DNA of 64,000 nt from Candidatus Nomurabacteria bacterium (GCA_943356415.1 CALREW010000001.1:357745-421744); one strand, 5' to 3'. Shown: positions 6,649-58,038, numbered from the stretch's first letter. Translations and numbers: made by a program. The notes: generated by a model not told the origin, from the letters alone.

Positions 6649-6672
6649 GAACGGCGCCTGAGGAGCAACTAG

Positions 6673-8886
6673 CTAGAGGTTTCCGCCAAGCTCACGCGCA
6701 ACTTGCGAGAGCGCCTCACGGTACTGCGGAGCTTTCTGCGCCGCCAAACGGAGCGTTGCAATAGCAGAGGGGAGATTCCCGGACTCTTTTTGAGCAACCG
6801 CGTACGACACCAGTTTTTGTATATTGTCTGGATCAGCCGAAACCTTCATCTTCCATATCGCGGCGACCTTATCGAACTCCTCTGCACGCACGTACGCGGT
6901 CAGTAGCCGACTGTCGTCAATAACGTCAGTACCGAACCATCCGGTAAGGAGTTTTTCTCCTTCGTCAGCCTGTTCATTCATGATAAGTGCCGAGGCGTAG
7001 AAAATGCGCGCCTCCCTAAACTCAGGCGCAAGCTCATATGCCGCACGGGTGACCTCAACTGCTTTTTGTAGATTGCCTGTCTGTGCGTAGTTATTAAACG
7101 CCGTTTCAAACGAGATCCATTGTTTTGCAGGCGAAAGCTCGTGCGCACGCAGTAGATGCGGGAGTGCCTCACTGTACGCACCAGCCTGATCAAGGAAGGC
7201 ACCGTAGAAAAGCTCGAGACGGGCATCGTCGGGACGCTCGGCAAGCATGGCTAGACCCCGCTCCTTCGCAAGTGCGATGAAGCCCGCTCGGATATCCGGC
7301 GACACGTTTTGATTCGCACTTATTACCGCCGTTGCCTGAAACAATTGTTCAATCGCTTCTTGTCGGCCAAGTGGTCCACTCAACGCTACCGTCTTAAACG
7401 ACTCGAGGTTTTCTTTTGGGTCTTTTGCAACCTGCACACTTTGACCGAGTGAGTTCTTTCCAATCTTGGCTGAAGAAATAGCATCGATCAATTGGTGCGA
7501 TGTGGTAATGCCTGGAACATTTAGATACCAGACGGCTGCACACGTCAGTACGACGCTCGCTGCACCGGTGAGCCACAAGAAACCTCCTGTGACCGGGCGC
7601 GTGAGCACAATACTCGAAGGAAGCGGCCGACGCGTGAGTGAGTGTGCGAGCGCGAGTATAAGGAAGAAGTACATTGAACTTACCAAGTTGTCGAAGACAA
7701 AGAATGAGTGAAATGCGTACGCGGCAATAAGTCCGATAAGTATCGAACGCTCGGCGACAGTAAGTCCTGGACCTTTAAAGAATGCCCAAAACGCAAGCGC
7801 AAAGAGGCTTATAAAGGCAGCGAATGCGACAACACCTCCCGCAACGAGCCAATCAATGTACTCGCTGTGCGCACGATCGAACCACTGCTCCTGCCCATAC
7901 ATCTGCGGGTTGTAGTACTTGTTGAAGACATAACTAAAGTTTTCCTGACCCCAACCAAGTATTGGGTGTTCCTTAAATCCCTCGTACGCCATGCCCCAAA
8001 TCATGAAGCGCGCCTTGATGGTTGTTTCGGTAGCAGAAATAGTGGCGAAGCGACTTAACACTGGATTGCGCTGAACTGCCGGCAGATTGTGAACCGCAAC
8101 AAATCCGACAACAATGAGACCTATTGCAACGAGTACCCCGATAGCCCATTTCCTGAGTGCCGGACGGCTCGTATCAAAAAGCCCTATGCCAAGTGCTGCC
8201 ACAATCAAGCCTCCAAGAAGGCCGAGTGTCGCACTGCGAGTCGCTGTGTAATAGAGCGCCACCGCATCAAGCACAATCGCGAGACCGTAGAGATATTGGA
8301 CGAAGCGAGGGCCTCTCCAGCGCATCATAAGGAACAACCCAATGAATACATGGAAGAGCATGTACACCGCCATATAAATAGCATTGCCAAACGTGCCATC
8401 TACGCGTATGCCGCCCTGGTTAATAACGAAGGCGCCACTCACTTGCAAGATTCCATAGACGCTCATGCAAAACGAGGCGAAAAGTGACGTCTGCAAGAAC
8501 CGCTCCCACAACTTCTCGGTAGAAAGCAATATGGTCACCACAAAGAACCACAAACCCATGTGAAGGGTGCCTATAAGCCCTTCCATGCGCTCAAAATTGC
8601 TCCAGAAGCTCTTTATAGGGTCAACACTGCCTATTGTGGCGAGTATCGCGGCTGCCATAAGGGAAAGTACGGCAATGCCTACCCAGGAAAATCGAGGGCG
8701 GTATTCCGGGTAACGCAGGGCCAAGATAAGGGTTCCTCCGGCAAGGAGCTCAATCAAGATACGGAATGCGAAGTTCTTCCCCGTAATAAACGGGAAAAAC
8801 ATACCATCGGCCACAAAAAACGGTATAAGAAAAACGCTAAAGAGGCCGGTGAGAAGTGTTATTCTCAGCAGATTTTTAGTCTCCAT
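6673..8886 (-). CDS. O-antigen ligase (Wzy_C)-like polytopic membrane protein fused to C-terminal TPR repeats
   Basis: About 12 TM segments in the N-terminal 450 aa. The C-terminal ~250 aa are TPR-like helical repeats (AYELAPEFREARIFYASAL..). Confidence 0.6.
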   Translation of the reverse strand: METKNLLRITLLTGLFSVFLIPFFVADGMFFPFITGKNFAFRILIELLAGGTLILALRYPEYRPRFSWVGIAVLSLMAAAILATIGSVDPIKSFWSNFERMEGLIGTLHMGLWFFVVTILLSTEKLWERFLQTSLFASFCMSVYGILQVSGAFVINQGGIRVDGTFGNAIYMAVYMLFHVFIGLFLMMRWRGPRFVQYLYGLAIVLDAVALYYTATRSATLGLLGGLIVAALGIGLFDTSRPALRKWAIGVLVAIGLIVVGFVAVHNLPAVQRNPVLSRFATISATETTIKARFMIWGMAYEGFKEHPILGWGQENFSYVFNKYYNPQMYGQEQWFDRAHSEYIDWLVAGGVVAFAAFISLFALAFWAFFKGPGLTVAERSILIGLIAAYAFHSFFVFDNLVSSMYFFLILALAHSLTRRPLPSSIVLTRPVTGGFLWLTGAASVVLTCAAVWYLNVPGITTSHQLIDAISSAKIGKNSLGQSVQVAKDPKENLESFKTVALSGPLGRQEAIEQLFQATAVISANQNVSPDIRAGFIALAKERGLAMLAERPDDARLELFYGAFLDQAGAYSEALPHLLRAHELSPAKQWISFETAFNNYAQTGNLQKAVEVTRAAYELAPEFREARIFYASALIMNEQADEGEKLLTGWFGTDVIDDSRLLTAYVRAEEFDKVAAIWKMKVSADPDNIQKLVSYAVAQKESGNLPSAIATLRLAAQKAPQYREALSQVARELGGNL

Positions 8887-8938
8887 GTGGCCATACTATA
8901 CCACCATCAAGTCAGCGACCATCAACGACTGCTTATGC

Positions 8939-9418
8939 TCACGATTGAGGCGTATGAGGAAGTGGTGCCGTTTTTTCTTCGCGAAAAAGGACAAATTTGA
9001 AGAGGAGGAACGTCACGACCGAAAAAATAAGGATGACTGAAGCAATGACCACAAGGTACCAATTAACACCGACGAACGCGGTGACGTGTTTGACGACGTA
9101 CGCCTGCACATACGTCAACACAAGTGAGTAGACCAAGAAAATGACGAGTCGACGCGTATGATCACCTTTTGTTTTAAAGGTGACAGCCGTATGCAGCACA
9201 AAATTGTAGAGAAGATTCGCCGCAAGGCCAATAAGATAGGCTGAAAAATAGTGTTCGCGCCCAAATACCAGCTCAGCAAAAGCGGCCGTGATACCGAGAT
9301 TGATAGCCACTCCTGTCGCTCCAACAACAAAAAAGTGAAGATACCGCGTACGCACAAGCAGGCGATACCACCATAGTGGATTAAAAAACTCAGCGGACGG
9401 ACGGTCAGTAGTCGTCAT
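8939..9418 (-). CDS. gtrA: GtrA-family small membrane protein (polyprenyl-P-sugar flippase component)
   Basis: 159 aa, 4 TM, YRLLVRTRYLHFFVVGATGVAINLGI... typical GtrA-like fold. Confidence 0.75.
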   Translation of the reverse strand: MTTTDRPSAEFFNPLWWYRLLVRTRYLHFFVVGATGVAINLGITAAFAELVFGREHYFSAYLIGLAANLLYNFVLHTAVTFKTKGDHTRRLVIFLVYSLVLTYVQAYVVKHVTAFVGVNWYLVVIASVILIFSVVTFLLFKFVLFREEKTAPLPHTPQS

Positions 9419-20317: not shown

Positions 20318-21418
20318 CTACCGATGCTTCCACTCAAGCGCTTCTTTCGGCAACAGCGCATCATCTACGAGATCAACCTCTGCAACTCGTCCGACAAGCT
20401 TCTCGAGGTCTCGAGGTTTGATACCAGAACCAGGCCCTTTGATAGTGAGCATCTCCTTTTCGATAACAGTTCCTTTCGGAATTACTACCGTCGTTGCAAC
20501 GCTCTTAGCAAGCTTCTCGCGCAATGGAATAAGTTCGGGATAGAGGACTTTCTCGCGAGAGCCGTTAATTTTCTCAATGCGGCGGATATCGCGCACCAAC
20601 TGCGCAAGCTCTTGCGGCTCAAGCGAGCCTGCATGATCTGAACCTTTCATAGTCTTGTCGAGCGTAAGATGTCGCTCAACGATGCACGCACCTTTTGAAA
20701 CGGCGACGAGCGTCGGCAAGAGATCCGGCTCATGCCCCGAATACCCCACCGGCAAAGGCTTATAGCGTTCAGTGAGTACGTCCATCACGTTCATGTTCAG
20801 CTTCTCCTCAGGAGCCGGGTACAGAGATAGGCAGTGGAAGAGGATAAGGCGGTGGTTGTGCTTGAGGACCGCTTCTACCGCATCGTGTATTTCCTCAAAC
20901 GTACTCATACCCGTTGAAAGGAGCACTGGCTTCCCTTTTTGAGAGACGTATTCAATAAGGGGTGTATTGGTTATATCGGCCGAGGGTATTTTGTAGGCAT
21001 CGATGCCGAGTCCGTGCATCACATCAGTACTTGTCTTGTCCCACACGCTTGCAAAGAAAAGAATGTTCTTTTCTTTTGCATACGCCATAAGCTCCTTATA
21101 TTGCTCCTCGTTAAACTCAAGCTTGTCTCGGTGCGCACCATAGGTTGGCGCATAGGCGTGTGGCGATGTGTACGCTTTCTCGAGTCCTTCACGGGTCAGA
21201 ATCTCGGTGGTGGTGCGTTTCTGGAATTTGACCGCATCGGCGCCACCTTCGACTGCAACATCAATAAGTTTCTTGGCGATGTCCATATCGCCGTTGTGAT
21301 TGATGCCAATCTCGGCAATAAAAAACACCGGCTCACCCGCACCAACATAGCGCGTTCCTACTTTGACTCGGTCTGGGTTCCCTTGAACGAGGTGTTTTAT
21401 TCTCTCGAAAATACTCAT
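20318..21418 (-). CDS. neuB: NeuB-family nonulosonic acid synthase (N-acetylneuraminate/Kdn/legionaminate-type PEP aldolase) with C-terminal SAF domain
   Basis: VFFIAEIGINHNGDMDIAKKLIDVAVEGGADAVKFQKR is the NeuB TIM-barrel signature. The C-terminal SAF/antifreeze-like domain is present. Confidence 0.9.
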   Translation of the reverse strand: MSIFERIKHLVQGNPDRVKVGTRYVGAGEPVFFIAEIGINHNGDMDIAKKLIDVAVEGGADAVKFQKRTTTEILTREGLEKAYTSPHAYAPTYGAHRDKLEFNEEQYKELMAYAKEKNILFFASVWDKTSTDVMHGLGIDAYKIPSADITNTPLIEYVSQKGKPVLLSTGMSTFEEIHDAVEAVLKHNHRLILFHCLSLYPAPEEKLNMNVMDVLTERYKPLPVGYSGHEPDLLPTLVAVSKGACIVERHLTLDKTMKGSDHAGSLEPQELAQLVRDIRRIEKINGSREKVLYPELIPLREKLAKSVATTVVIPKGTVIEKEMLTIKGPGSGIKPRDLEKLVGRVAEVDLVDDALLPKEALEWKHR

Positions 21419-21570
21419 GATACGCGTTAGCGTCGCATAGAACAGTTGGGGTGTAAAGACGACATGCTCTATAACCCCGTCGAGGCACGATATGTTTCAG
21501 ATGCGTGATTTGAATTGGAGGTAATTGTGTGGCATTGTAGCCCTGGAATTGCCCGGAGGGAACCAAAATC

Positions 21571-22605
21571 ATGACTGTCTCTAAGCTGGCCATTGCGGCC
21601 AAAGACGTGGCTGCCGCTCGCGCGGTAACGCCGATCATCTCTGAGCTTCGGCGCCTCAACCTGGAGCTGCGTATCGAGCTGTATGTCGAAGGGTTCGCCG
21701 CTGGCGAGCATTTCGGCATCGCGCCCACCCTATCCTCAAAGAAGGGCGGCTCCCTCAATTTGGCAGAGGTGCTCAAGCGGCTCGGAGAGTTCGACCCGGA
21801 CGTGTTACTCGTCGGATGCTCAACGTCCGACGAAGGCCCTTCGATCGAGCGAGCGCTCATCGAATCCCTCAGTGATGAGCAGCGCCGCAAGATCAAGATT
21901 GTGGCCGTCCCCGACTACTGGCGCGCGGAACATCGGCTGGGTCTCTCTGTCGATTTGCTGCTCGTCATCGATGATGTCGCCAAGCAGTTGGCCGTGCAGA
22001 ATGCGGCCGCAGCCGAAGAGCCGGTAATCATCGGTGACTTCGTGGCATCGGACGTGGAGGTGCAGAAGTGGATCGCCGGGTCCTTTGAAAGTGCCCTGCC
22101 CAAGGGGCTCGATCTCAACAAGACGCTTCTGGTCGTGGGGCAAGGACTACCGTATCTCCCCGACCTCATGAGTCTCTCCGTCGACTGCCTCAAGGAGTCG
22201 CCCGGCTGGACATTGGTGCCACGTCTCTTCCACCCCAAGAAAAAGCCGGACGATGGCCTGGTGGAGACCTGGAACCGGCTCTCAGAGCGATACCGCGACC
22301 GCATCGTAGAGCTCGATGCGCACATCTTCTCAACCGATGCGCTCGCCGTTGCCTGCGGCGCGACACTCTCTGGCTTCTCGACGACACTGCGGTACGCCGC
22401 CGCAGCCGGCAAGCTCGCGCTCTCGGGTGACACCGAAGCGGTGCGTGCCGGACGTTTGAAATCCACCAGCATAGAGCTCTACCCGCCGGCGATAACTGGC
22501 GAAGCGCTCGCGGTGACGCGGGGTATCCCGCTGCACAGCATGGGGTCCACCGTGCGCCCCTTCAACCCAACACTCGCCGCCAAGCGCATCTTGGCCCTCA
22601 AGTGA
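21571..22605 (+). CDS. GT-B fold protein with C-terminal HP(K) motif (TagF/KpsC-S/sialyltransferase/WecB-like); paralog of 38404..39438
   Basis: Sits in a GC-rich island with GGAGGG 10 nt upstream of the ATG. Shares ordered motifs with 38404..39438 (N-terminal Rossmann start, AVxDYW, FHPKxKxDxxxTW, xADxxAxxxSxxLxxAAAGKLAL). Substrate not assignable. Confidence 0.4.
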   Translation: MTVSKLAIAAKDVAAARAVTPIISELRRLNLELRIELYVEGFAAGEHFGIAPTLSSKKGGSLNLAEVLKRLGEFDPDVLLVGCSTSDEGPSIERALIESLSDEQRRKIKIVAVPDYWRAEHRLGLSVDLLLVIDDVAKQLAVQNAAAAEEPVIIGDFVASDVEVQKWIAGSFESALPKGLDLNKTLLVVGQGLPYLPDLMSLSVDCLKESPGWTLVPRLFHPKKKPDDGLVETWNRLSERYRDRIVELDAHIFSTDALAVACGATLSGFSTTLRYAAAAGKLALSGDTEAVRAGRLKSTSIELYPPAITGEALAVTRGIPLHSMGSTVRPFNPTLAAKRILALK

Positions 22606-22635
22606 ACCCGCGGCCTCAGGCCGCCTACATCGCAG

Positions 22636-22662
22636 AACCCCGCCCTAACCGGCGGGGTTTCG
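22636..22662 (+). terminator. intrinsic terminator downstream of 21571..22605
   Basis: ccccgcc-ctaac-cggcgggg followed by tttcg. Confidence 0.5.
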
Positions 22663-22666
22663 CACA

Positions 22667-23263
22667 TCAAAAATATCGACGCAGCCTCCTCAATGCTCGT
22701 GTGAAAAACTGTAGTTTCTTATTTACAAAAACCAAACGCCAAGTTCCCCCTGCGTATTCGACGCAAGATATCGAGGCAAGTGCAAGTGATTGCCGCTCGT
22801 TGGTAAGCCCCATAAGAAGGTTTTGCAGAATAAGTTCATGCGCCACAATGCACACCGCCTCCTGCGAGTTCGTTTTCCGCTGTTCGTCAAGAACGGCCCC
22901 GACTCTTGAGAGTGCTTGCTCATAGGTCTCCTCCACCGATCGTGCCGCGGTCTCTCTGGCTCGAAGTGACTGTACCAGTGCCGCAAATGCTTTCCCCTCA
23001 AGATCGTGCACCGGTTCCCATTCACACAACCGCTCGTCAAGACGAAGTGGTACACCGCACGTTAGCGATATGAACTCAGCAGTTTCTTTTGCGCGCGCAT
23101 AGGGACTACTTATAATTGATTCGATATGTTTCCCTTTTAAAAACCGAGCCGCGGCACGGGCTTGTGCTTTACCCCACACTGAAAGTGCCGCTTCACGCGC
23201 TTGCAGAGGTGTGAGCCCCTCACGTGGAACACTTTCTCCATGCCGCACCAAATAAACTTTCAT
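22667..23263 (-). CDS. histidine phosphatase superfamily (phosphoglycerate-mutase-like) protein
   Basis: Begins MKVYLVRHGES (RHG catalytic motif). Start set to the internal Met so that it abuts the upstream cytidylyltransferase stop. Confidence 0.8.
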   Translation of the reverse strand: MKVYLVRHGESVPREGLTPLQAREAALSVWGKAQARAAARFLKGKHIESIISSPYARAKETAEFISLTCGVPLRLDERLCEWEPVHDLEGKAFAALVQSLRARETAARSVEETYEQALSRVGAVLDEQRKTNSQEAVCIVAHELILQNLLMGLTNERQSLALASISCVEYAGGTWRLVFVNKKLQFFTRALRRLRRYF

Positions 23264-23979
23264 GCGCGTCCTTGTGTCTTCATCAAATACTCGTACGTGC
23301 TCCATCGCTCAAGGGTGTCAATACCGTTTTCTGCATGCGGAAGTATAACGGGTACAATCTTTTTCCCTGAGAGACCCTTAAACGCGGTAACCGTGCGCGC
23401 CCAAAGCGCATCGACATAGCCCACATGCTTGTACGCTTTCGGCAATAAATACGTTGGCTTATTAAATGCTTCTTCCCCTTCAAGTGCGATAAGCGGTTGT
23501 AAATACCCTTCTTCATCGACTGAGTACATTTTGTAAGGCGATTGCTCGGGTTCAGTGACCGTGCGCGCAGAATCCGCATCAGGATGCTCAGAGAGAGCCT
23601 CGATAGTTGCATCAATATGCTCGACAGTTCTAAGCGGCGACGTAGGGCGCAACTGCACTAGCATGTCGGGTGTCTTTCCTTCGTGCTCCTCCATCCAAGA
23701 GAGAGCGTGCTCAAACACGAGATAGTCGCGCGCTTCGTCAGTCGACATTTCTGCCGGACGCGTGTAGGGCACCTCAGCGCCAAGCGAGCGAGCGAGCGCT
23801 GCTATTTCTTCGTCATCAGTCGAGACAATGACTCGGTCAAGATAGGCTGACTTTTTGGCCTCCTCTATCGTCCAGGCGATAAGCGGTTTGCCACAGAGTT
23901 CCTTGAGGTTTTTACGCGGAACACGCTTGCTACCCCCTCGGGCAGGGATAATCGCCGTCACCGTATACGACTGAATCAT
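23260..23979 (-). CDS. CMP-nonulosonic acid synthetase (acylneuraminate cytidylyltransferase family, NeuA/PseF-like)
   Basis: AIIPARGGSKRVPRKNLKELCGKPLIAWTIEEA...VIVSTDDEEIA matches the CTP_transf_3 signature. Confidence 0.85.
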   Translation of the reverse strand: MIQSYTVTAIIPARGGSKRVPRKNLKELCGKPLIAWTIEEAKKSAYLDRVIVSTDDEEIAALARSLGAEVPYTRPAEMSTDEARDYLVFEHALSWMEEHEGKTPDMLVQLRPTSPLRTVEHIDATIEALSEHPDADSARTVTEPEQSPYKMYSVDEEGYLQPLIALEGEEAFNKPTYLLPKAYKHVGYVDALWARTVTAFKGLSGKKIVPVILPHAENGIDTLERWSTYEYLMKTQGRA

Positions 23980-24051
23980 ATGCCGTATTTAACCACGCAG
24001 AAAAACAAAGGTCACTGACCGAACCCGGGCGTTCGTTTACAATAGAGCGGT

Positions 24052-24393
24052 ATGGAAACCTACCGCGAAGAGAGGCCCTGGGGAGCCTTCGAACAATTCA
24101 CCCACAACGAGCCCTCAACCGTAAAGCTTATTCACGTATCTCCAACAGGTCGGCTCAGTCTGCAACGACACCAAAAACGTGATGAGTTTTGGAGGGTGGT
24201 TTCGGGCAGCCCTCGCATCACTATAGGAGACATTGTTACTATCGCTAACGTAGGTGACGAATTCTCAATTCCAAAAGGCACGATCCATCGCATCGAATCA
24301 CCAGATAGCGCCTCAGTGATACTCGAAATTGCAACGGGCGATTTTGATGAGAGTGATATCGAACGGCTCGAGGATACTTACGGTCGAGCGTAA
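24052..24393 (+). CDS. stand-alone mannose-6-phosphate isomerase cupin domain (type II PMI C-terminal domain family)
   Basis: EERPWGAFEQF...LQRHQKRDEFWRVVSG...DESDIERLEDTYGR reproduces the MannoseP_isomer cupin motifs. Confidence 0.75.
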   Translation: METYREERPWGAFEQFTHNEPSTVKLIHVSPTGRLSLQRHQKRDEFWRVVSGSPRITIGDIVTIANVGDEFSIPKGTIHRIESPDSASVILEIATGDFDESDIERLEDTYGRA

Positions 24394-25790
24394 GCATTAA
24401 GTCCCCTTGCAAGCTCTTCCCCGAGACGCCGTCCAGCGTTGCCGTCAAGCGGATCGAGCAGAAGCGCCTGTGCACGCTTCCGTGCGGCTTCATCGACATA
24501 CGAAGGAGTAAAACTTGCGAGCACTTCCTTGGCCAAATCCTGAGGCGTCGGGGCATAGGCGGCAGCTCCTGTTTCCATAAACGCTTCAAAGTGCGTGTAG
24601 CAGTCGTAATACCGCTTCACCGAGAGCCAATACGGCATATCTTTTCGTGCGCCATCGAATCCAACACAAATGGCGCGACGCCCAAAAGGAATCGCATCAA
24701 CGGCAACCGTCGAAGCTGCCGTTACCACTGCGTCGGCATAGGAAAGTGCGTGCATGTAGCGCTCCTCGCTGGTAAGGCCTTTCCCTTTCTCGTCGAGGTA
24801 CGACGTGTCTCCATCGAACACCACGTGAGTAAATTGGGCTAGTTTCTCTGGCGGCGGTTTAAATTTTGGATGCGCCCGCACCAGCACGCGCGCGCGAGGC
24901 CCGAAGGCGCCGTCGCGCGCCATGGCATTCATCACCTCAATCGCTCCCATTTCCTCAACAAAAAGGAACTCTCCCATTGCGCCGTAGAACACTAGTTTCT
25001 CCTCAGGCGAGAAACCGACACTCGCAAAAAACTGAACTTTAGGAATGAGTGTGTCGCGCGCTCGCAGATAGGCATCGTAATGAGGCAGTCCAACAATCGA
25101 CATCGGAACGCGAGATACACTTATCCCCTGGTATTTCGTAGCCATGTCCCGCAAAAAGACATTTTGAAGGAAAAAACGATCAGGGACCACGCGTAACAGA
25201 CCGTGACTTGAGAGATTGTCCCAGCTGCGAACCATTCCGAGGAGTGGGACCTTCTGCTGCCGCGCCGCGCGTGCCAGTGGAACGTCAAAGTTAAAGTTGG
25301 TGAGCGACAAACATACCAGCACGTCTGGCTGTAGGCTCCGTATACATTCAGTTGCCTCTTTATCTGAGGTGTAACGAATGATGAGAAACCGTACGAACCG
25401 TTTGAAAAGCGAGCTGTGTGCAAAAAGGGCCGTAAACACGCGTTTGCGATATGCCGACAAAAGACCGATGTCCCCGCGGGTATAGGCCCGCATCTTTGTC
25501 CACAGATTGGTGCGCGTCGGCAGGCCACTGCGCGCCAGAGACATAATCGCGCGTTCACGCGCTGTTTCCTTGCCACGCGCAAAGGTAACAACTTGCGCGT
25601 GCGCGCCGACCCGCGTGCGAATATCCTGGGCAATCGCTTCGTCAGCAATGATGGTCACCTCCGACGCCTCAAGAGTGCTAAAAAATGAATCGACAAATTC
25701 TTCGGTCAGTATATTCCTGGCGATAATTGCCTCTCCAACGGTTATAGCTACCCGCATACGCGTCAATGGTACTTCTTTTCTATCGTCCAT
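24378..25790 (-). CDS. hypothetical two-domain protein; C-terminal half is a third copy of the HP(K)-motif GT-B domain
   Basis: VRAHPKFKPPPEK...YADAVVTAASTVAVDAIPFGRRAI aligns with the FHPKFK...YADGVASGYSSTL...AGKLAL block of 38404..39438. Confidence 0.35.
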   Translation of the reverse strand: MDDRKEVPLTRMRVAITVGEAIIARNILTEEFVDSFFSTLEASEVTIIADEAIAQDIRTRVGAHAQVVTFARGKETARERAIMSLARSGLPTRTNLWTKMRAYTRGDIGLLSAYRKRVFTALFAHSSLFKRFVRFLIIRYTSDKEATECIRSLQPDVLVCLSLTNFNFDVPLARAARQQKVPLLGMVRSWDNLSSHGLLRVVPDRFFLQNVFLRDMATKYQGISVSRVPMSIVGLPHYDAYLRARDTLIPKVQFFASVGFSPEEKLVFYGAMGEFLFVEEMGAIEVMNAMARDGAFGPRARVLVRAHPKFKPPPEKLAQFTHVVFDGDTSYLDEKGKGLTSEERYMHALSYADAVVTAASTVAVDAIPFGRRAICVGFDGARKDMPYWLSVKRYYDCYTHFEAFMETGAAAYAPTPQDLAKEVLASFTPSYVDEAARKRAQALLLDPLDGNAGRRLGEELARGLNAYARP

Positions 25791-25812: not shown

Positions 25813-27195
25813 TTATGTCTTCACAATTCTAAATATCCTTAGATAACGGACGGCAAGTGCGCGAAGTTCACTCAAGATAATAATGTCGTCAGCATCGACG
25901 GTAAAAAAGTCCCGCCAATCAAGCGAAAATCCGGGCATAAGTTTCTTCAACGAACGATAGCGTTCCCACGTGTAGAGCGAATTGGATAGGATGTTGGCGT
26001 ACGCGATGCCGAAGAGTCCAAAGAAATGAATCATGACGGGCGTCAGGACGATAACGAGTACGAGCTTGTAGAGGGATGCAAAAAAGAGGTTGCGCTGTGC
26101 TTGAAGCGCATAAAACACGCCCCCAAAAATAATGTCGAAGGCAACCGAAATAAGCATAAGAAGCGTAATTTGAAACAGCGGTACGGACGAGAGGTATTGT
26201 GGGAAGAACCAACCGATAAAAAACGGAGAGAAGACTGCAGCAGCAATGCTCACGAGTGCGTAGCCAGCCAATTCATATTTAATTGCCTTTGCGACAATGT
26301 GATGGAATCGCTCTTTCAAATGAACATACTGCGGCAGCATGGGGATTATCACTCGATCAAGCGGCACGAGAGACATGGTGTGCCCGATGAGCCCTTGCGC
26401 GACCGCATAAATACCGACTGCCTCGGTTCCAAGGAAAAACTTGATAATCCATGGACGGATATTGCGCCCAAAAACACCGAGATAACTTGAAAAGACGCCC
26501 CATTTCCCATGATGGAACAAAAAGTGGAACGTCGGGTAGCGCGTCTGTTTGGTACTCCAAAATGACGAGTCGATGCGCACAAACGGAAGAGAGAACGCGA
26601 GTAAGCCAACCGCTTGCGAGAGGACAATGGCTAGTACCAAACCTTCCGTGCGCATATCGAACATAAAGAAGAAGAGCGCGAGCAAAAGCAATTTAAAAAG
26701 TTCTTCCGCAATAGAGTAGAGCGACTGTTGTTTAAATTCAAAATACACGCTCTGAAGCGCTTGCATGCAGATTCGTACGGGCGACAGCAAAAATGCAAAC
26801 GAGATTATTTTGAATAACGTGGACGCTTCTTCTTTGCCGTACTCAACGGCTAAAAAATGCGCCCCAAAGAAAACGGCCGCCCACAATAGTATTGCGAAGT
26901 ATGCCTGCAAACGGAGGAAAGAGAAGAAGAGCCCTTTCATGCGCGGCAAGTCGCCTACACCGCGCTGCCGCCCCATATCTGCAATAACGGTTGTACTGAG
27001 ACCCGGTAAGAGGAAAAGGGAGAGCAGTGGTATCGCGGTCAAGACGAGCTCCGCGGAACCGTACTCATGGAGCGTGAGGCGGTTGAGGACGAGTAGCACT
27101 GAAAGGAAACTGAGCCCCTTCATTACAAGGGTCGTCCCTGCCAACCACGTGGTCCCGCGTCCCACCGTCGATCTAACCGATGCATCCATCTTCAT
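25813..27195 (-). CDS. Wzx-like oligosaccharide flippase (MOP/polysaccharide biosynthesis protein family)
   Basis: 460 aa with about 12-14 TM segments and the typical PST-family N-terminus. Confidence 0.75.
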   Translation of the reverse strand: MKMDASVRSTVGRGTTWLAGTTLVMKGLSFLSVLLVLNRLTLHEYGSAELVLTAIPLLSLFLLPGLSTTVIADMGRQRGVGDLPRMKGLFFSFLRLQAYFAILLWAAVFFGAHFLAVEYGKEEASTLFKIISFAFLLSPVRICMQALQSVYFEFKQQSLYSIAEELFKLLLLALFFFMFDMRTEGLVLAIVLSQAVGLLAFSLPFVRIDSSFWSTKQTRYPTFHFLFHHGKWGVFSSYLGVFGRNIRPWIIKFFLGTEAVGIYAVAQGLIGHTMSLVPLDRVIIPMLPQYVHLKERFHHIVAKAIKYELAGYALVSIAAAVFSPFFIGWFFPQYLSSVPLFQITLLMLISVAFDIIFGGVFYALQAQRNLFFASLYKLVLVIVLTPVMIHFFGLFGIAYANILSNSLYTWERYRSLKKLMPGFSLDWRDFFTVDADDIIILSELRALAVRYLRIFRIVKT

Positions 27196-27361: not shown

Positions 27362-27853
27362 ATGAAAAAAAAGAAGAAAGTTGCTACGAAAAGTAAGAAG
27401 CGAAGGGTATATACCTACGGGGTATTCGACCTATTTCATAGCGGGCACGCGGAACTCCTGAAGAAGGCAAAAGGATTGGGTGACCACCTTGTTGTCGGAC
27501 TCTTTACCGATGAGGTTGCGGCAAGCTTCAAGCGGCAGCCGGTTATCCCCTATGAGCATCGCAAAGCCGTGCTTCATCACATAACCTTTGTCGATGAAGT
27601 TGTTCCACAAGATGAACTGCTCCCCCACAAGAATATTCTTAAAATAAAGCCTCACATTCTCGCAAAGGGGCCAGGCGCTGGCTGGGAGCCAAAAATGAAG
27701 GAGGCCCCTGGTGAAGAGGCGATAAAGGCAGTTGGCGGGAAAGTGGTTCGTCTTCCGTATCACGAGGGCATATCAACGAGTCAAATTATTAAAAAAATAG
27801 CAGACAACCATGGTAATAGTCTCAAATCACCTGCTCGAAAAAACCGAAATTAA
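27362..27853 (+). CDS. tagD: glycerol-3-phosphate cytidylyltransferase (TagD-like)
   Basis: YGVFDLFHSGHAELLKKAK (HxGH nucleotidyltransferase motif); about 160 aa. Confidence 0.8.
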   Translation: MKKKKKVATKSKKRRVYTYGVFDLFHSGHAELLKKAKGLGDHLVVGLFTDEVAASFKRQPVIPYEHRKAVLHHITFVDEVVPQDELLPHKNILKIKPHILAKGPGAGWEPKMKEAPGEEAIKAVGGKVVRLPYHEGISTSQIIKKIADNHGNSLKSPARKNRN

Positions 27854-28346
27854 TTTTCCACGCGAGCACGTTGTTATTCGTATTAACGTCGCCTGGATAC
27901 AGACGAAGGAAAAGTTGGTTGAACTGCTTGGCGGCATCTCTCACGATATTTTCCTCGACTACCCGCAAGGACGCTCAAAGCCGCCTCGCCCAACGCTCAC
28001 CCTCGACGAGACGATAGAACTCATACCTCAGTTTCCAAACATCAAATATTTTGCGGTCTCAAACGTCGAAGACCCTGATGCCGTCGCGCTCATAAAGGAC
28101 CGTCTCCCGGAGTCGGTAGAGCTTGTACCTAAAATAGAAACGAAGAGAGGCGTCGAGATGCTCAAAGAGATCGTCACCCGCATCGGCACGAAACACATCA
28201 TGCTCGATAAGGAAGATCTCTACACGAACGTCAATCTAGACCAGGAGGTCTTCGAGCAGCTCGTGACGCTTGCGCGTGCAAACTGCAAGGAAACAGGCGT
28301 TGCCACCCTCGAGCTTCAAGGGGTCGTTTTTGCTCCACACGAGTAG
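27810..28346 (+). CDS. small PEP/pyruvate-binding TIM-barrel-like protein (pyruvate-kinase-like superfamily fragment)
   Basis: FAVSNVEDPDAV...LVPKIETKRGVEMLKEI...IMLDKEDL resembles the PK FASFIR...KIENxEGVxxxDEI...IMVARGDLG block and PEP-utilizers_C. Only about half-barrel length. Confidence 0.35.
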   Translation: MVIVSNHLLEKTEINFPREHVVIRINVAWIQTKEKLVELLGGISHDIFLDYPQGRSKPPRPTLTLDETIELIPQFPNIKYFAVSNVEDPDAVALIKDRLPESVELVPKIETKRGVEMLKEIVTRIGTKHIMLDKEDLYTNVNLDQEVFEQLVTLARANCKETGVATLELQGVVFAPHE

Positions 28347-28355
28347 GCCCGTTTC

Positions 28356-29585
28356 TTACTCAACAATTCTTTCTATCCTCGCGAAAACCTGGCTCGCTGA
28401 TTTTTCAGGCTGAGGATTGAGTACCATCGCACGAATCTTTGCGCGCTCACCCGCATACGCCTCCGGCTGCTTTGCAGCGTCAATAAGTGCCTGATAGAGC
28501 GCTTCGACGTTTTGTGCCTTTTGCCCTGGGGTAATTGCCTCGTAGTCAAAGTACATCTCGCGCATCTGACCCGTGTAGGTATCGAGGTCAAATGGGAAAA
28601 AGACGATTGGTCGGTCAAGCACCAAAAACTCGATGTATACGGATGAGTAGTCCGTCAAAAGTATGTCAGTAAAGCGAAGTGGAAGCATTGCGCCCACTTC
28701 TGCAGGCAAGAAACTAAGATTCGAAAACGGTTGATTCCCTGCTGGTGGAAGTTCGTGGTGCATCTTTATATACATGTGCATCGCGTGTTTTCCTAAGAAC
28801 GCATCAAGGGCGGCGAAGTCGAGTCCACTTTTCTCGAGCGGATTGTTGCTCCCGTCACGGAACGTCGGCAAGTACATAATTACTTTTTTTGTAGCGCGAA
28901 TTGCCTCCATGGTCTCAATGAGCCTCTGTTCACTTGGAAGTACGAGCACGTCAGATGAGAGGAGCGCCTCGTTACGTGGTTGGTTCTCAACAATCACGTG
29001 TGAAGTGTCGACGCGGAATGCGGAGCTAAAGAAATCACGCCAGGACTTTGATTGAGAGAGCACGTAATCGCCAAAATCAGCCTTGTACGGTTCGAAAAAA
29101 AGATGATAGAAGCGCTTTAGCCCAGTCGTGGTATACACCCAATTATTCTTCTTGGTCTTTGCCGAATCATAGACAATCTTTTTTATCGGCAACCCGTGCC
29201 AGAGGTTAATCTTCACCATTCCGCCAGTCAGGAAGTAGAACGCCGATATGTGGGACTCGATAACAATTACTTTTGCACGAAGCGTGTACCAGAGTCCTTG
29301 AAGTGAGTAGGCGTGATACGCGTGAAATCCTTGCTCGGTAAGTTCGGCTGCAATCTCATCCGAATGGGTAATCCAAACCGCTTTCAAGTGAGTTTGATTG
29401 TTGTGCATGTAGAGGTAGAGATATCGAGCATTATCCGCAAAGCGCTTCCCTCCCCATTCATCAAATAGCCATACGCGTTTGCTTCGCGGCACACAAAACG
29501 AAAGGCCGTACAGTATATAGAAAACACACCGAAGCAGCGCTCGAGGAATATCTAACAAAAGTCGTATCATCCGTTTGAAAATCAT
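28356..29585 (-). CDS. CDP-glycerol glycerophosphotransferase (TagB/TagF family)
   Basis: Glyphos_transf motifs: YLPTFRD, MHHELPP (HP-type), TDILLTDYSSVYIEFLVLDRPIVFF. Confidence 0.8.
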   Translation of the reverse strand: MIFKRMIRLLLDIPRALLRCVFYILYGLSFCVPRSKRVWLFDEWGGKRFADNARYLYLYMHNNQTHLKAVWITHSDEIAAELTEQGFHAYHAYSLQGLWYTLRAKVIVIESHISAFYFLTGGMVKINLWHGLPIKKIVYDSAKTKKNNWVYTTTGLKRFYHLFFEPYKADFGDYVLSQSKSWRDFFSSAFRVDTSHVIVENQPRNEALLSSDVLVLPSEQRLIETMEAIRATKKVIMYLPTFRDGSNNPLEKSGLDFAALDAFLGKHAMHMYIKMHHELPPAGNQPFSNLSFLPAEVGAMLPLRFTDILLTDYSSVYIEFLVLDRPIVFFPFDLDTYTGQMREMYFDYEAITPGQKAQNVEALYQALIDAAKQPEAYAGERAKIRAMVLNPQPEKSASQVFARIERIVE

Positions 29586-30878: not shown

Positions 30879-32549
30879 TCAGGCTGTGCTGCTTTGCGTG
30901 AGGTTGCCCACGCGCAGGATGTTTGGGCCTGGCATGCCCATCGAGTGCTCGAAGGTAATGCCGGGCGCGCCAGGATTGAACGGGATGTTGAGCAGAGCGC
31001 GGACGCCGTCCTCCAGATCGCCTCGCAGTCGGACGAGGTCCTCCCGCGAAAGCGTGTCCGTGTAGACGTACGACTGGTACCCGCCCTCGGGGTCGCCCTT
31101 GTAGTAGTAGGCCTTCGCCAGAGGGTCGAACGCGTCGAGATAGAGGCGGTCTCCCGTTCCACCCCCACGCAGCGGTACCGTGTAGACCCAAGGCCCTTCA
31201 GGGTGCGCTGGATCGACCGGCTCGGCGTCGTCGTAGTAGGGCGTGCCGGGATAGCACGTGATCAGCGAGACGTCGAAGTCGTTCGGTTTCTGGGCGAGAA
31301 GCCACTGGCGAGTCTCCTCGATAGTTGCTTCCGTTTCGCCCGGATGACCGACCGACATAAGTGCCTTCACCTTGATCCCGTGCTTCTGGGCAATCTGCAG
31401 GCAGCGAGTGTTGTCTTCAGCCGTCGCCTGCTTGTGGATGTTCTTGAGAATCCTCGGTGAGCCCGACTCGAACCCGACGAGAATCCAGCGGAAGCCGGCA
31501 GCGTACATCGCGGCGGCCTGCTCTTCGTTGAAGAGCTCGGCCTTGATGAACCCGCGCAGACGCCACTCAACCCCCAGCTCTTCTTGCTTGCGGGCGATAG
31601 CCTTCATGAGGCCGACGAGTTCCTTGTTCACGTTGAGTTCGTCGTCGTAGAACATGAAGCCCGTCTTGCCCGTGGTCCTCCACAGGTGCTCCATCTCCGC
31701 GACAATGTCCTCGGTCGTGCGCGTACGGATGCGTCGAAGCATCGAAGACTTGCGTCCCCCGCAGAAACGGCAGCCGAACGGGCAGCCAAGTTGCGCAATC
31801 AGCGAGATCGCCGGGAAGCCCTCGATCGTGTAGCGATAGCTGGCGGCGTCCACCAGATCCCGAGCTGGCCACGGAAGCTCCTCGAGCTTCTCATTGGTCA
31901 GGAAGAGATCAGACGATGGCTCGTCGGCGTCGATGAGTTTCGGAGCGCCCGGATGGCACGCTTCGAAAATGGCCTCTTCGCCGTCGCCGGCAACGAGGAC
32001 ATCGAAGAGCTCGCCAAGTTCTTGCATGTGCGTTGCCGCACGGCGGAACTGCGCGTTACGCTTCGCTTCCCCCTTGGCAGCCGCATTCACGAGCGTGACG
32101 TGCGGACCGCCGAGGATGATCTTCGAGCCCGGCTTCTTCTGCCGCAACACGTTGACGATTCCGGCAACCGCCGGCATCTGCGGCGTGGTCGCCGTGATGC
32201 CGAAGAGCGTCGCGTCGCTGTGAGCAACGAAATACTCCACGGTCTCCAGGTAATTCTTCACGCCGGAGAGGTCGAGAACCCCGACCTCCGCTCCCGCCGC
32301 ACGCAGCACCGCCGCGATACGCAGGACTCCGAGGAACATGAAGACCCGCTCGTCGAGCAAGAATGCCGACGGCGGAATGATGAGCGTAATTGCCTTCGGC
32401 ACGACCTTCTCCGGAGCCCGAGCTCCGCGAAGGTCCGCCTGTGCGGTCTCACGCATGAGCAGACTCCTTCCAAAAAGTGAACCGATGTGCCCGTGCCCAA
32501 TAGAAAGGGCGGCCGAAGTCACAATAGCAAGTGCGTACTCGAACCGCAA
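30879..32549 (-). CDS. cobalamin (B12)-binding radical SAM enzyme (class B rSAM, probable methyltransferase)
   Basis: N-terminal B12-binding Rossmann domain, then CPFGCRFCGG (CxxxCxxC). GC-rich island. True start may be the internal Met (MRETAQ...). Confidence 0.8.
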   Translation of the reverse strand: MRFEYALAIVTSAALSIGHGHIGSLFGRSLLMRETAQADLRGARAPEKVVPKAITLIIPPSAFLLDERVFMFLGVLRIAAVLRAAGAEVGVLDLSGVKNYLETVEYFVAHSDATLFGITATTPQMPAVAGIVNVLRQKKPGSKIILGGPHVTLVNAAAKGEAKRNAQFRRAATHMQELGELFDVLVAGDGEEAIFEACHPGAPKLIDADEPSSDLFLTNEKLEELPWPARDLVDAASYRYTIEGFPAISLIAQLGCPFGCRFCGGRKSSMLRRIRTRTTEDIVAEMEHLWRTTGKTGFMFYDDELNVNKELVGLMKAIARKQEELGVEWRLRGFIKAELFNEEQAAAMYAAGFRWILVGFESGSPRILKNIHKQATAEDNTRCLQIAQKHGIKVKALMSVGHPGETEATIEETRQWLLAQKPNDFDVSLITCYPGTPYYDDAEPVDPAHPEGPWVYTVPLRGGGTGDRLYLDAFDPLAKAYYYKGDPEGGYQSYVYTDTLSREDLVRLRGDLEDGVRALLNIPFNPGAPGITFEHSMGMPGPNILRVGNLTQSSTA

Positions 32550-38322: not shown

Positions 38323-38418
38323 TCCAACGAAAAAGCCGCCCCCAGAGGGACGGCTTCTCCCAGCCTTGCGGCTGAAATGTGTGTGGGCGAACCGCGTGTG
38401 AGGTTAGTCCAGGAGCGC
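38323..38418 (-). repeat. copy B of the ~90-bp 3' element following gene 38404..39438
   Basis: See copy A. The terminator stem here carries a substitution that becomes a U-G wobble in minus-strand RNA. Confidence 0.85.
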
Positions 38419-39438
38419 GAGGATGGCTTGCGCTCCAATGGACGGATTGAGCGGCTGCAGCTCGTACTTCGGCCACTGCCGCTTAAAGAACTCGTCGAGC
38501 GGTTTGGGTTGCGCCAGCACCGGGTAGCCGCCCTGCATCATAAGCGGCGACTTCTTGAGACCCGCTTGGCGGAACAGCTCACTAGCCGTGCTCTGGTTCC
38601 AGAGCGTGAGGGCAAGCTTCCCCGCCGTTGCCGGCCGCATCAAAGTCGAACTGTAGCCGGACGCCACGCCGTCGGCGTACTGGATGATCTCGTCGGTCGG
38701 CTCGGACATCATATGGACGCGGCCGCACATCGTGAGCGGCTCGAGCACCCGGTCACACCACACGCCCCAGGTCGTCCCATCTTCCCGCAGGACATCCTTG
38801 AACTTCGGATGGAACTTCGGGATCAGGATGACACGCTGCGAGGTTTCCAGGATCGAGCTGACCAGATGACGGAGTGCCGGATCGGCATCCGGGCCACCGT
38901 CAGGATAGACGAGCAACTTGTCGCTCGCCTTCTCGCGAAGCGAGTCCATCCTCGCCTTGAGATCCGGGTTGGCCTTAACCGGTGTGATGCCGGCGAAGCC
39001 AACCTGTACGATCGAGACTTGTCTGCCGGGCCACCGCTGCCGGACGAGCGTGTCGCTCACCGCGTCGATGGTGAGGTAGAGATCGGCGGGCTGCTCAGCC
39101 CGCTTTTCCACACCCCAGTAGTCCACAGCATGCACCAGAGGAACATGGTGCGAGAAGCTGCGTGCCTGCCGATCGAATTCGGCCTCCATCACGCGCGGCG
39201 AAGAGATGCCGGTGACGAGCGCGTCGGGGTTGAGCTTGACGAGGATGTCGCGAGGGGAATCGCCTTCGTCGACGAGTTGGTAGGGCTGCAGGCTCTCGTT
39301 GAGCTTTGCCGTCGCCCTGCCGTCCTTCTCGATGAGCAGATGTACTTCATGGCCGAGGCCGCGAAGTTCCTGGACCATGGGGAGCAGCACATTGGCTGGC
39401 CCCATGTCCCGAATGGCAACAACGATTCTCTTTTTCAA
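38404..39438 (-). CDS. GT-B fold protein with HP(K) motif; paralog of 21571..22605; TTG start
   Basis: FHPKFKD ... YADGVASGYSSTLMRPATAGKLAL. AGAGGTG upstream of the TTG start. Confidence 0.4.
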   Translation of the reverse strand: MKKRIVVAIRDMGPANVLLPMVQELRGLGHEVHLLIEKDGRATAKLNESLQPYQLVDEGDSPRDILVKLNPDALVTGISSPRVMEAEFDRQARSFSHHVPLVHAVDYWGVEKRAEQPADLYLTIDAVSDTLVRQRWPGRQVSIVQVGFAGITPVKANPDLKARMDSLREKASDKLLVYPDGGPDADPALRHLVSSILETSQRVILIPKFHPKFKDVLREDGTTWGVWCDRVLEPLTMCGRVHMMSEPTDEIIQYADGVASGYSSTLMRPATAGKLALTLWNQSTASELFRQAGLKKSPLMMQGGYPVLAQPKPLDEFFKRQWPKYELQPLNPSIGAQAILALLD

Positions 39439-45339: not shown

Positions 45340-45350
45340 GCGCGTCCGCC

Positions 45351-57956: not shown

Positions 57957-58038
57957 AGCGTATGTATAGCAATCAGGCTCTCTAAAAACAACACGGTCGG
58001 CCCTTCGTCAGGCCGACCGTGGTGCACGTGTTGTTCGT

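Follow-up and report, generated by a model that had tools for sequence, protein, structure and literature searches.

On balance, the interval 20318-25790 of the window, the 64-kb stretch of DNA from an uncultured ultra-small Patescibacteria/CPR bacterium that was analyzed here, appears to be the core of a conserved patescibacterial (CPR) glycan module that makes a CMP-activated nonulosonic acid by a phosphorylated route of the animal/Bacteroides type, with the HAD phosphatase replaced. Most likely, the novelty here is a histidine phosphatase in the place that a HAD enzyme takes in other bacteria, the three-step phosphorylated pathway itself being already known. The initial annotation had regarded this layout as not previously described, and no description of a NANS-like synthase combined with a histidine phosphatase was found in the searchable literature.

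Pfam and NCBIfam scans covered the window's ORFs of at least 150 amino acids across the 64 kb plus several, not all, of the shorter ones (Table 1). The synthase, histidine phosphatase, cytidylyltransferase, and cupin genes that the initial annotation had placed in the interval are all present at those positions according to the Pfam matches (PF03102, PF00300, PF02348, and PF01050), and direct reading bore out the reported abutment of the cytidylyltransferase and phosphatase genes: the stop codon of the former overlaps the start codon of the latter as ATGA. Two further genes within the interval, absent from that earlier description, encode GT-B proteins of the TagF superfamily; both are probably part of the module and CMP-sugar transferases. 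Eight distinct loci of the Patescibacteria type, counting the window, show the order cytidylyltransferase, histidine phosphatase, synthase, and the first two genes overlap by 4 nt in seven of them. Since this order recurs in eight loci whose phosphatases are only 31–53% identical to the window copy, the arrangement is not a product of chance. A flippase gene adjoins the TagF-like gene in three loci (L005, L007, and L009).

Table 1. Genes of the proposed nonulosonate module and adjacent features (positions within the window).
Feature	Length (aa)	Position	Strand	Profile match
NANS-like nonulosonate-9-phosphate synthase (NeuB TIM barrel + SAF domain)	366	20318-21418	-	PF03102, E 5e-80, spanning the full model (1-241)
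Short relative of the TagF-like protein, from a GT-B family not named before	344	21571-22605	+	
Histidine-phosphatase-superfamily (branch 1) enzyme; proposed nonulosonate-9-phosphate phosphatase	198	22667-23263	-	PF00300, E 1.5e-30 (107 bits, cut-off 21.7)
Predicted CMP-nonulosonate synthetase (CTP_transf_3)	239	23260-23979	-	PF02348, E 1.8e-28 (100 bits, cut-off 22.6)
Stand-alone type-II PMI-like cupin; proposed Fru-6-P/Man-6-P isomerase	113	24052-24393	+	PF01050, E 5.7e-21 (75 bits, cut-off 23.6)
GT-B protein of the TagF/TarL superfamily; proposed CMP-nonulosonate transferase or polymerase	470	24378-25790	-	Orthologs match PF04464
MOP/Wzx-type flippase	460	25813-27195	-	PF01943, E 3.5e-21
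Canonical TagF-family protein		28356-29585		

Affiliation of the synthase

Judged by its sequence, the synthase is NANS-like and not an ordinary bacterial NeuB, LegI, or PseI. The comparison with characterized enzymes that the initial annotation had suggested gave this result by identity, bit score, motif, and tree position alike. The synthase shares 42% identity with human NANS (NP_061819.2) over 341 amino acids with one gap (281 bits), as against 155 bits and only 29% core identity for the NeuB of Neisseria meningitidis and 122 bits for PseI; it is 37% identical to the Man-6-P-specific Kdn-9-P synthetase of Prymnesium. In the alignment, the beta2-alpha2 motif of the NANS clade, KFQK[RS]...TYGxH[KR]xxLEF, is present as KFQKR...TYGAHRDKLEF, and D148, an Asp invariant among the CPR homologs, is aligned with E134 of the N. 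meningitidis enzyme; E134D is a reported signature (PMC8208679). Neighbor-joining analysis, for which only three outgroup sequences were used, grouped the synthase with NANS, the Prymnesium enzyme, and the synthases of HAD-linked loci in 162 of 200 bootstraps (81%). Clustering with LegI or PseI together with neighboring amino-sugar genes, which would have spoken against a phosphorylated route, was not observed, as the synthase falls into the NANS-type clade and the scanned ORFs of the 64 kb yielded no such genes. Characterized members of the NANS-like clade use Man-6-P or ManNAc-6-P (PMC6200933, Table 2). From this affiliation we infer that a 6-phospho-hexose is the substrate of the synthase; going by the gene context, Kdn-9-P is its most likely product.

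Distribution of histidine and HAD phosphatases

Among 80 genome loci, from bacteria and archaea, that encode this NANS-like synthase type, a HAD protein homologous to the Bacteroides Kdn-9-P phosphatase BT1713 occurs in 54; it adjoins the synthase (<300 nt) in 43 loci and is fused to the CMP-synthetase in 18. A histidine phosphatase was found in none of the same 80 loci. In the eight Patescibacteria-type loci, the slot between the CMP-synthetase and the synthase holds a catalytically intact histidine phosphatase. Its branch 1 catalytic set (RHG His, two Arg, Glu proton donor, and second His) is complete, R7, H8, R57, E81, and H142 do not vary among the ten module-linked or closest homologs compared, and a basic C-terminal tail is common to the module-linked copies only. 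NeuB was encountered near just one of 80 generic His_Phos loci, and the link to the synthase is therefore specific to the subfamily found in the module. A HAD homolog is missing from seven of the eight module loci, and none was found in the 64-kb window even at E < 1 (phmmer --max). These sequence comparisons lend good support to a phosphorylated route in which the HAD (KdsC/BT1713-type) enzyme has been displaced by the non-orthologous histidine phosphatase, as the initial annotation had proposed for a module possibly making CMP-Kdn. The two phosphatase types are not strictly exclusive, because one related locus (L091/L092) carries the histidine phosphatase plus two BT1713-like HAD proteins; there, the histidine phosphatase may serve a different function.

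That locus, where both HAD proteins lie beside the cytidylyltransferase–His_Phos–synthase string, also fits an unlikely alternative in which the synthase uses a phospho-sugar, but a housekeeping or distant HAD enzyme removes the 9-phosphate while the histidine phosphatase acts on another intermediate or as a phospho-histidine phosphotransferase or mutase. Two close relatives of the same synthase clade (L005 and L010) do without any phosphatase in the slot, sugar phosphatases are described as functionally redundant (PMC6200933), and the histidine phosphatase superfamily includes mutases. Moreover, the window covers 64 kb of a ~425-kb contig, so the genome could encode a HAD phosphatase outside it. 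This alternative is opposed, however, by the seven loci with no HAD within reach, by the translational coupling of the histidine phosphatase to an enzyme that needs the dephosphorylated product, and by the fact that the core genes predict no other phosphorylated intermediate. In addition, loci that lack the glycerol-phosphate sub-module still have the phosphatase linked to the synthase and cytidylyltransferase. Synteny and the distribution nearly complementary to that of the HAD enzyme argue for the histidine phosphatase as the predicted nonulosonate-9-phosphate phosphatase.

Identity of the sugar and the TagF-superfamily proteins

The CMP-synthetase scored 159 bits with the PseF model, under the equivalog cut-off of 206, and matched the Prymnesium CMP-Kdn synthetase in phmmer (E 9e-19). 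The cupin, described in the initial annotation as a stand-alone mannose-6-P isomerase cupin, is PMI-like at the family level and a putative isomerase; it corresponds to just the cupin portion of the bifunctional GMP/PMI enzyme. Its orthologs, in which LSLQxHxKRDEFW and GDEFxIPxGxxHRI are conserved, lie within the module in two other loci (L002 and L093), so that a PMI-type cupin is kept in three module versions; a search for a close solved structure of the cupin found none. DegT-type aminotransferase, hexapeptide acetyltransferase, PseB/LegB, Epimerase_2 (NeuC), and NanE/NanK were not found among the scanned ORFs of the 64 kb, which agrees with the earlier statement that Leg/Pse-type genes are absent nearby, and the sole SDR of the window (41594-42622) reached 115 bits against a LegB cut-off of 475. 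The PMI-type cupin in three versions and the lack of NeuC/GNE, NanE/K, and Leg/Pse genes among these ORFs were counted for Kdn, which, from this gene context, is probably the sugar rather than Neu5Ac.

The 470-aa protein itself stays below the Pfam threshold (no PF04464 match at E 0.01), but its four scanned orthologs do match. A profile of the orthologs, which also contained the canonical TagF-family protein of the window, matched TarL and TagF in the PDB. In seven related loci the gene likewise heads this gene string, and in four of these the cytidylyltransferase follows it immediately.

The 344-aa protein is probably a CMP-sugar transferase or, alternatively, a 2-epimerase-like enzyme. Structurally, its nearest matches are NDP-sugar 2-epimerases, NeuC and GNE among them, the best 40 Foldseek matches being 2-epimerases; in a weak profile match (E 0.006), its HP motif lines up with the one in a 2-epimerase. 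This likeness would favor a ManNAc-derived sugar and counts against Kdn. Accordingly, the same phosphorylated route could lead to Neu5Ac or another 5-acylamino nonulosonate, with the 344-aa protein as a divergent hydrolyzing UDP-GlcNAc 2-epimerase (NeuC/GNE-like), an unlinked kinase making ManNAc-6-P, and the histidine phosphatase acting on Neu5Ac-9-P, in effect a bacterial copy of the animal GNE–NANS–NANP–CMAS pathway. The synthase has retained the SAF domain, as in human NANS, and the 344-aa family shares a gene cluster with NeuB and a CMP-synthetase in all assessable contexts, both of which fit this reading. Nevertheless, it is improbable: profile–profile comparison groups the family with TagF-like transferases (probability 97.7%, E 2e-12) and gives only 24% probability for canonical Epimerase_2. 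Furthermore, a member of the family occurs alongside a canonical Epimerase_2 in one locus (L095), a second paralog lies 16 kb away in the window, a pattern typical of transferases, and the gene is absent from four of the eight His_Phos loci, where assessable. No sugar kinase turned up in the window, and the module retains its PMI-type cupin. It is highly improbable that the pathway is a conventional, non-phosphorylated one of the NeuB, LegI, or PseI type with the phosphatase and cupin as mere neighbors. Among the NCBIfam models NeuB_NnaB gives the synthase its highest score, and NCBI labels the relatives generically as N-acetylneuraminate synthase family, but the synthase is under the equivalog cut-offs for NeuB (TIGR03569; 324 vs. 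399.65 bits) and PseI (TIGR03586; 217 vs. 340.25 bits) and nearer to NANS than to N. meningitidis NeuB. In addition, NeuC, PseB/C/H, and LegB/C were not found among the scanned ORFs of the 64 kb, and the phosphatase synteny is kept despite the low identities.

Known pathways and the proposed function

According to the pathway summary in PMC6200933, Bacteroides thetaiotaomicron makes CMP-Kdn with the Kdn-9-P synthase BT1714, the HAD Kdn-9-P phosphatase BT1713, and a CMP-Kdn synthetase. Compared at the level of this summary, the window would follow the same logic: a synthase of the NeuB family that acts on a 6-phospho-hexose, followed by a dedicated phosphatase and by activation through a CTP_transf_3 enzyme. 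It differs in that its phosphatase belongs to the histidine superfamily (phospho-His instead of phospho-Asp) and is gene-coupled to the cytidylyltransferase, and in the addition of the PMI-like cupin and TagF-superfamily transferases. With the animal pathway (GNE, NANS, NANP, and CMAS) it shares a predicted dephosphorylation before CMP activation and a synthase whose resemblance to NANS spans the whole protein, with both the SAF/AFP-like domain and the beta2-alpha2 motif; in contrast, it has no GNE-type kinase or confirmed epimerase, its phosphatase is not the HAD enzyme NANP, and its predicted substrate is Man-6-P instead of ManNAc-6-P. The Kdn pathway of Prymnesium parvum likewise combines a NANS-clade synthase with a CMP-Kdn synthetase and, like the window, lacks a detected BT1713-type homolog, which left the algal phosphatase step without a candidate (PMC6200933); the algal synthase has no SAF domain, and the window, unlike the alga, offers a gene-linked phosphatase candidate. 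The Kdo pathway (KdsA, KdsC, and KdsB) shows the same succession of synthase, phosphatase, and CMP-synthetase, KdsB being a CTP_transf_3 enzyme, but KdsA is a member of the DAHP_synth_1 family, and the pathway makes an eight-carbon sugar with a phosphatase of the HAD type. As a lead only, the TagF-like enzymes suggest a teichoic-acid-like polymer comparable, by its description, to that of the Streptomyces cluster SCO4873-SCO4882, a wall-polymer cluster around Kdn-containing teichulosonic acid (PMC13011467).

In the proposed pathway, the PMI-like cupin would convert Fru-6-P to Man-6-P, and the NANS-like synthase, for which the clade is established and the substrate predicted, would condense PEP and a 6-phospho-hexose, yielding a 9-phospho-nonulosonate that is most likely Kdn-9-P. 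The translationally coupled histidine phosphatase would then remove the 9-phosphate, as its synteny and distribution relative to HAD suggest, and the enzyme of the CTP_transf_3 family would form the CMP-sugar. One or both TagF-superfamily GT-B proteins may transfer or polymerize the sugar, CMP being the leaving group; export of the product may fall to the flippase. Tentatively, Paceibacteria-type CPR could possess a Kdn surface or wall polymer for which two TagF-derived GT-B families switched their donor from CDP-glycerol to CMP-nonulosonate, this donor being supplied by an animal-type phosphorylated pathway with the basic-tailed histidine phosphatase as 9-phosphatase. In a bolder variant, the phospho-histidine enzyme would return the phosphate of the 9-phospho product to the hexose that enters the pathway; such a phosphate shuttle, if true, would account for the fact that no kinase is linked to the module.

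Gene content of the module and its surroundings

Domain scans covered the window ORFs of at least 150 amino acids and several of the shorter ones. Pfam domain matches recovered the synthase, the histidine phosphatase, the cytidylyltransferase (CMP-synthetase), and the cupin exactly where the initial annotation had placed the four genes of a putative phosphorylated-route, Kdn-like module, and the claimed abutment of cytidylyltransferase and phosphatase was confirmed, with the stop codon of the former overlapping the start codon of the latter in the sequence ATGA. The description of the interval was incomplete in lacking two further ORFs, which code for proteins of 344 and 470 amino acids.

Features of the module and of other regions of the window
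Feature	Position (window)	Strand	Remarks
NeuB-family synthase with SAF domain	20318-21418	-	PF03102, E 5e-80
344-aa ORF	21571-22605	+	strand opposite synthase; no Pfam match
Histidine phosphatase	22667-23263	-	PF00300, E 1.5e-30
CTP_transf_3 cytidylyltransferase	23260-23979	-	E 1.8e-28
PMI-type cupin	24052-24393	+	PF01050, E 5.7e-21
470-aa ORF	24378-25790	-	no Pfam match
TagD/RfaE-like cytidylyltransferase	27362-27853	+	member of three-gene set
178-aa protein	27810-28346	+	faint pyruvate-kinase-barrel/HpcH-like similarity only
TarF-like glycerophosphotransferase (canonical TagF-family protein)	28356-29585	-	member of three-gene set
B12-binding radical-SAM enzyme	30879-32549	-	best partial matches PhpK and HpnJ families
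Second paralogue of the 344-aa family	38404-39438	-	HMM E 1.8e-88; no Pfam or NCBIfam match
Lamin-tail/PKD-domain protein and TrwB/TraG-like type IV coupling ATPase	43849-47249	-	directly beyond the glycan cluster
Region of elevated G + C content	58000-59800		G + C 0.60 vs about 0.50; ORFs overlap on both strands; no Pfam or Rfam match

The module is part of a single long glycan cluster extending from approximately 6.7 kb to 43.8 kb of the window. Other genes of this cluster code for YfhO/PMT-like membrane proteins, for GT2, GT4, and GT47 enzymes, for methyltransferases and a B12-radical-SAM enzyme, and for a flippase and a Wzy-like protein; at its borders lie SecA, MurB, MurC-like, and branched-chain amino acid ABC transporter genes. 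No gene for an aminotransferase, hexapeptide acetyltransferase, PseB/LegB, Epimerase_2, NanE, or NanK was found among the scanned ORFs of the 64-kb window. The earlier statement that Leg/Pse-type genes are missing nearby thus holds across this distance, and a Leg/Pse pathway was ruled out because the dehydratase, aminotransferase, and acetyltransferase genes which it needs are absent from the same set of ORFs.

Other features of the region were recorded as well. The B12-binding radical-SAM enzyme occurs near the module in three loci, namely in the window, in L007 (10281-11825), and at the end of L091 (L002–L095 denote numbered related loci compared with the window), and the several SAM methyltransferases beside it, together with this enzyme, suggest C- or P-methylation of the glycan. 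The three genes at 27362-29585, of which the first two overlap by 44 nt, are conserved as a set in the Kaiserbacteria locus L009 (7392-9606) and look like a teichoic-acid-type sub-pathway in a member of the Patescibacteria (CPR); a PDB search with the 178-aa protein gave nothing useful. An Rfam search of the window found no RNA family.

Affiliation of the synthase and the usual partners of its clade

The initial annotation had left the type of the synthase to a comparison with characterised enzymes, which identified it as NANS-like. Its alignment with the human synthase NANS, whose sequence was an exact match to NP_061819.2, spans 341 residues at 42% identity and includes one gap (281 bits, E 3e-97), as compared with 155 bits for Neisseria meningitidis NeuB and 122 bits for PseI, and its scores for the NCBIfam NeuB and PseI equivalogs (324 and 217 bits) lie under the respective cut-offs of 400 and 340. 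Identity to the Kdn-9-P synthetase of Prymnesium parvum (sequence from the supplement of PMC6200933), which accepts only Man-6-P as substrate (PMC6200933), is 37%. The segment KFQK[RS]…TYGxH[KR]xxLEF is common to the window synthase, human and mouse NANS, the Prymnesium enzyme, and related bacterial loci, and is missing from N. meningitidis NeuB, Bacillus subtilis SpsE, and Leptospira NeuB. We assume that it corresponds to the loop named α2β2, to which the phospho-substrate preference of NANS has been ascribed (PMC8208679). Furthermore, an aspartate (D148) occupies the position of E134 in N. meningitidis NeuB, a change reported for archaeal and eukaryotic enzymes (PMC8208679). Residue M42 of human NANS, considered as a Kdn determinant, was not informative, the aligned position in the window synthase being a valine.

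In a neighbour-joining tree (93 sequences, 265 core columns, 200 bootstraps), a split with NANS, the Prymnesium enzyme, and all retrieved loci on one side and N. meningitidis NeuB, SpsE, and Leptospira NeuB on the other was recovered in 162 bootstraps, and the window synthase fell into a Paceibacteria-type subclade (173/200); given the small outgroup and the simplicity of the method, this tree is regarded as supportive rather than definitive. Dozens of homologues with 59-85% identity were obtained from metagenomes, the named ones belonging to Candidatus Kaiserbacteria, Paceibacterota, Minisyncoccia, and Patescibacteria, which identifies the host as a member of the CPR/Patescibacteria. The window itself matches the metagenome contig ERZ27280315 in ENA (longest copy 425 kb).

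When 185,579 species genomes were scanned with a CPR synthase alignment, 80 synthase loci (37-66% identity) from many phyla were obtained, and all their six-frame ORFs were searched with BT1713, the HAD-type Kdn-9-P phosphatase of Bacteroides thetaiotaomicron (sequence from the supplement of PMC6200933), and with a histidine-phosphatase HMM. A BT1713 homologue was located within 7 kb in 54 of the 80 loci, no more than 300 nt from the synthase ORF in 43 of these 54, and on one ORF with the CMP-synthetase in 18. The HMM detected a histidine phosphatase in none of the 80 loci. These counts are independent evidence that enzymes of the clade make a phosphorylated product which requires a dedicated phosphatase. 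Only L010 among the 80 is a close Paceibacteria-type locus, so that the frequency of the histidine phosphatase within the Paceibacteria-type clade is based on ten loci.

Gene fusions of three kinds were observed in NANS-like clade members from other phyla. The 18 loci in which the CMP-synthetase is joined to a BT1713-type HAD include L034, L039, L040, L045, L046, L050, L052, L054, L061, and L071. L044 has a fusion of CMP-synthetase and synthase, and the third kind links the synthase to a TIM barrel (see below).

The histidine phosphatase and its relation to the HAD enzymes

The gene order cytidylyltransferase, histidine phosphatase, synthase was found in eight distinct loci (the window, L002, L003, L004, L007, L009, L091, and L093), with a 4-nt overlap of the first two genes in seven of them. 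The module-linked phosphatases are 31-53% identical to that of the window, and the branch-1 catalytic residues R7-H8 (RHG motif), R57, E81, and H142 are invariant across all copies. The window protein ends in a basic, partly hydrophobic tail (22667-22720; KKLQFFTRALRRLRRYF). Such a C-terminal tail is common to the module-linked homologues (L002, L003, L007, L009, L093), is lacking in generic relatives, and may form an amphipathic helix for membrane association. The closest relatives with a solved structure match weakly (E about 1e-5) and comprise phosphoglycerate-mutase-family proteins, fructose-2,6-bisphosphatase, and the broad-specificity sugar-phosphate phosphatase PhoE. A metagenome scan with the histidine phosphatase alignment returned generic histidine phosphatases only and was used as specificity control; NeuB was found within 6 kb in just 1 of 80 such metagenome loci, and the linkage is thus a property of the module-linked subfamily.

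The proposal that a histidine phosphatase replaces the HAD enzyme gained support from a sensitive search, which detected no BT1713 homologue in seven of the eight loci with a filled slot (L002, L003, L004, L007, L009, L093, and the 64 kb of genome in the window). The same search revealed a pair of BT1713-like HADs in L091/L092, one encoded immediately upstream of the cytidylyltransferase, and L091 is the sole observed co-occurrence of both phosphatase types. In this Patescibacteria-type locus the HAD genes (6659-7207 and 8381-8947) accompany the cytidylyltransferase-histidine phosphatase-synthase string. L005 and L010, which belong to the synthase subclade of the window, have neither phosphatase in the slot, and L005 carries a methyltransferase there. 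The histidine phosphatase may accordingly have a different role in the module, as the additional HADs of L091/L092 and the lack of a phosphatase in the slots of L005 and L010 would allow. Because of these loci and the 64 kb visible, the two families are best described as nearly, not perfectly, complementary. The comparative signal for a displacement of the phosphatase is clean.

Product sugar, candidate transferases, and implications

Three module versions, those of the window, L002, and L093, have the PMI-type cupin in conserved form (56-78% identity), and other small cupins occur in the neighbourhood in L007, L012, and L090; a PDB search with the cupin gave nothing useful. No ManNAc-generating or ManNAc-phosphorylating gene was found among the scanned ORFs of the window. 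Kdn-9-P is the product of the characterised microbial clade members from B. thetaiotaomicron and Prymnesium (PMC6200933). In the Chloroflexi loci L036, L056, and L087 the synthase carries a fused xylose-isomerase-like TIM barrel (AP_endonuc_2), which resembles in architecture, clade membership aside, the Serratia NeuB required for Kdn production (PMC9000132). On these grounds the evidence leans modestly towards Kdn as the product sugar; the assignment falls short of certainty because the SAF domain is kept as in human NANS, the activity of the cupin is putative, and the 344-aa protein has a predicted 2-epimerase-like fold.

The 344-aa protein matched only itself in a word-indexed homologue search, and exhaustive HMMER searches recovered 132 cluster representatives, with whose alignment the AlphaFold model reached a pLDDT of 96 (pTM 0.92), compared with a pLDDT of 35 from the single sequence. 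Its modelled fold would fit a 2-epimerase, but the profile similarity of the family lies with the TagF-like family of the 470-aa protein (hhalign probability 97.7%, E 2e-12, 250 columns), with which it has an R-x-HPK motif in common, and it is barely related to canonical Epimerase_2 (probability 24%). The family clusters with NeuB and CMP-synthetase in all five checkable loci besides the window (L002, L090, L091, L093, L095). L093 reproduces the window gene order exactly (27% identity of the 344-aa family copy), L095 has a canonical Epimerase_2 alongside, and in L017 a member adjoins NeuB on a 5-kb contig too short to show a CMP-synthetase. The second paralogue in the window lies 16 kb away in the same glycan cluster, and L090 contains two copies of this GT-B family.

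All four scanned orthologues of the 470-aa protein match PF04464 (TagF-type CDP-glycerol glycerophosphotransferase), and TarL and TagF were the PDB matches of the orthologue profile, which also held the canonical TagF-family protein of the window. In seven related loci its gene stands first in the same string of genes, and in four of these it lies immediately upstream of the cytidylyltransferase. Both proteins are read as candidate TagF-superfamily transferases, with a 2-epimerase retained as the rival reading. By analogy, a CMP-nonulosonate is a plausible donor, since CMP is released by TagF enzymes as well as by sialyltransferases, and an HP motif is a known feature of the bacterial sialyltransferases (Freiberger et al. 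2007; PMC2169525).

In the proposed pathway, the cupin would convert Fru-6-P to Man-6-P, which the synthase, judged by its clade, would condense with PEP to Kdn-9-P. The histidine phosphatase, identified by family and catalytic residues, would release Kdn and Pi via a phospho-His8 intermediate, a substrate suggested by synteny and the near-complementarity with the HAD enzymes. The CTP_transf_3 family member would form CMP-Kdn from Kdn and CTP, the TagF-superfamily proteins could carry out transfer or polymerisation, and the flippase may serve in export.

This logic is that of BT1713-BT1715 in B. thetaiotaomicron, of NANS/NANP/CMAS in animals, and of Prymnesium, from all of which the module differs by its host lineage, by its TagF-derived candidate transferases, and by a phosphatase that belongs to another superfamily and is translationally coupled to the cytidylyltransferase. 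It would represent a non-orthologous displacement affecting a single step of a known pathway, in a lineage that has been little studied; phosphatase swaps are common. Full-text literature searches of incomplete coverage found no paper linking a histidine phosphatase to nonulosonate-9-phosphate and none connecting the synthesis of sialic or nonulosonic acids with CPR bacteria, in agreement with the initial view that the layout was undescribed, and because of that coverage the result amounts to an absence of evidence only. In practice the consequence is modest, in that pipelines annotating an 'N-acetylneuraminate synthase family' and a 'histidine phosphatase family' protein would miss the pathway.

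If correct, the proposal would bring a second enzyme family, unrelated in mechanism, to the phosphatase step of sialic acid/Kdn biosynthesis and offer a concrete candidate for lineages without a findable homologue of the HAD Kdn-9-P phosphatase, a gap noted for Prymnesium (PMC6200933). It would also indicate that the animal/Bacteroides/algal route to a sialic-acid-type sugar is in use among many uncultured Patescibacteria, and would single out two TagF-superfamily families, both uncharacterised, as candidates for CMP-nonulosonate transferases, of which, to our knowledge, few are known.
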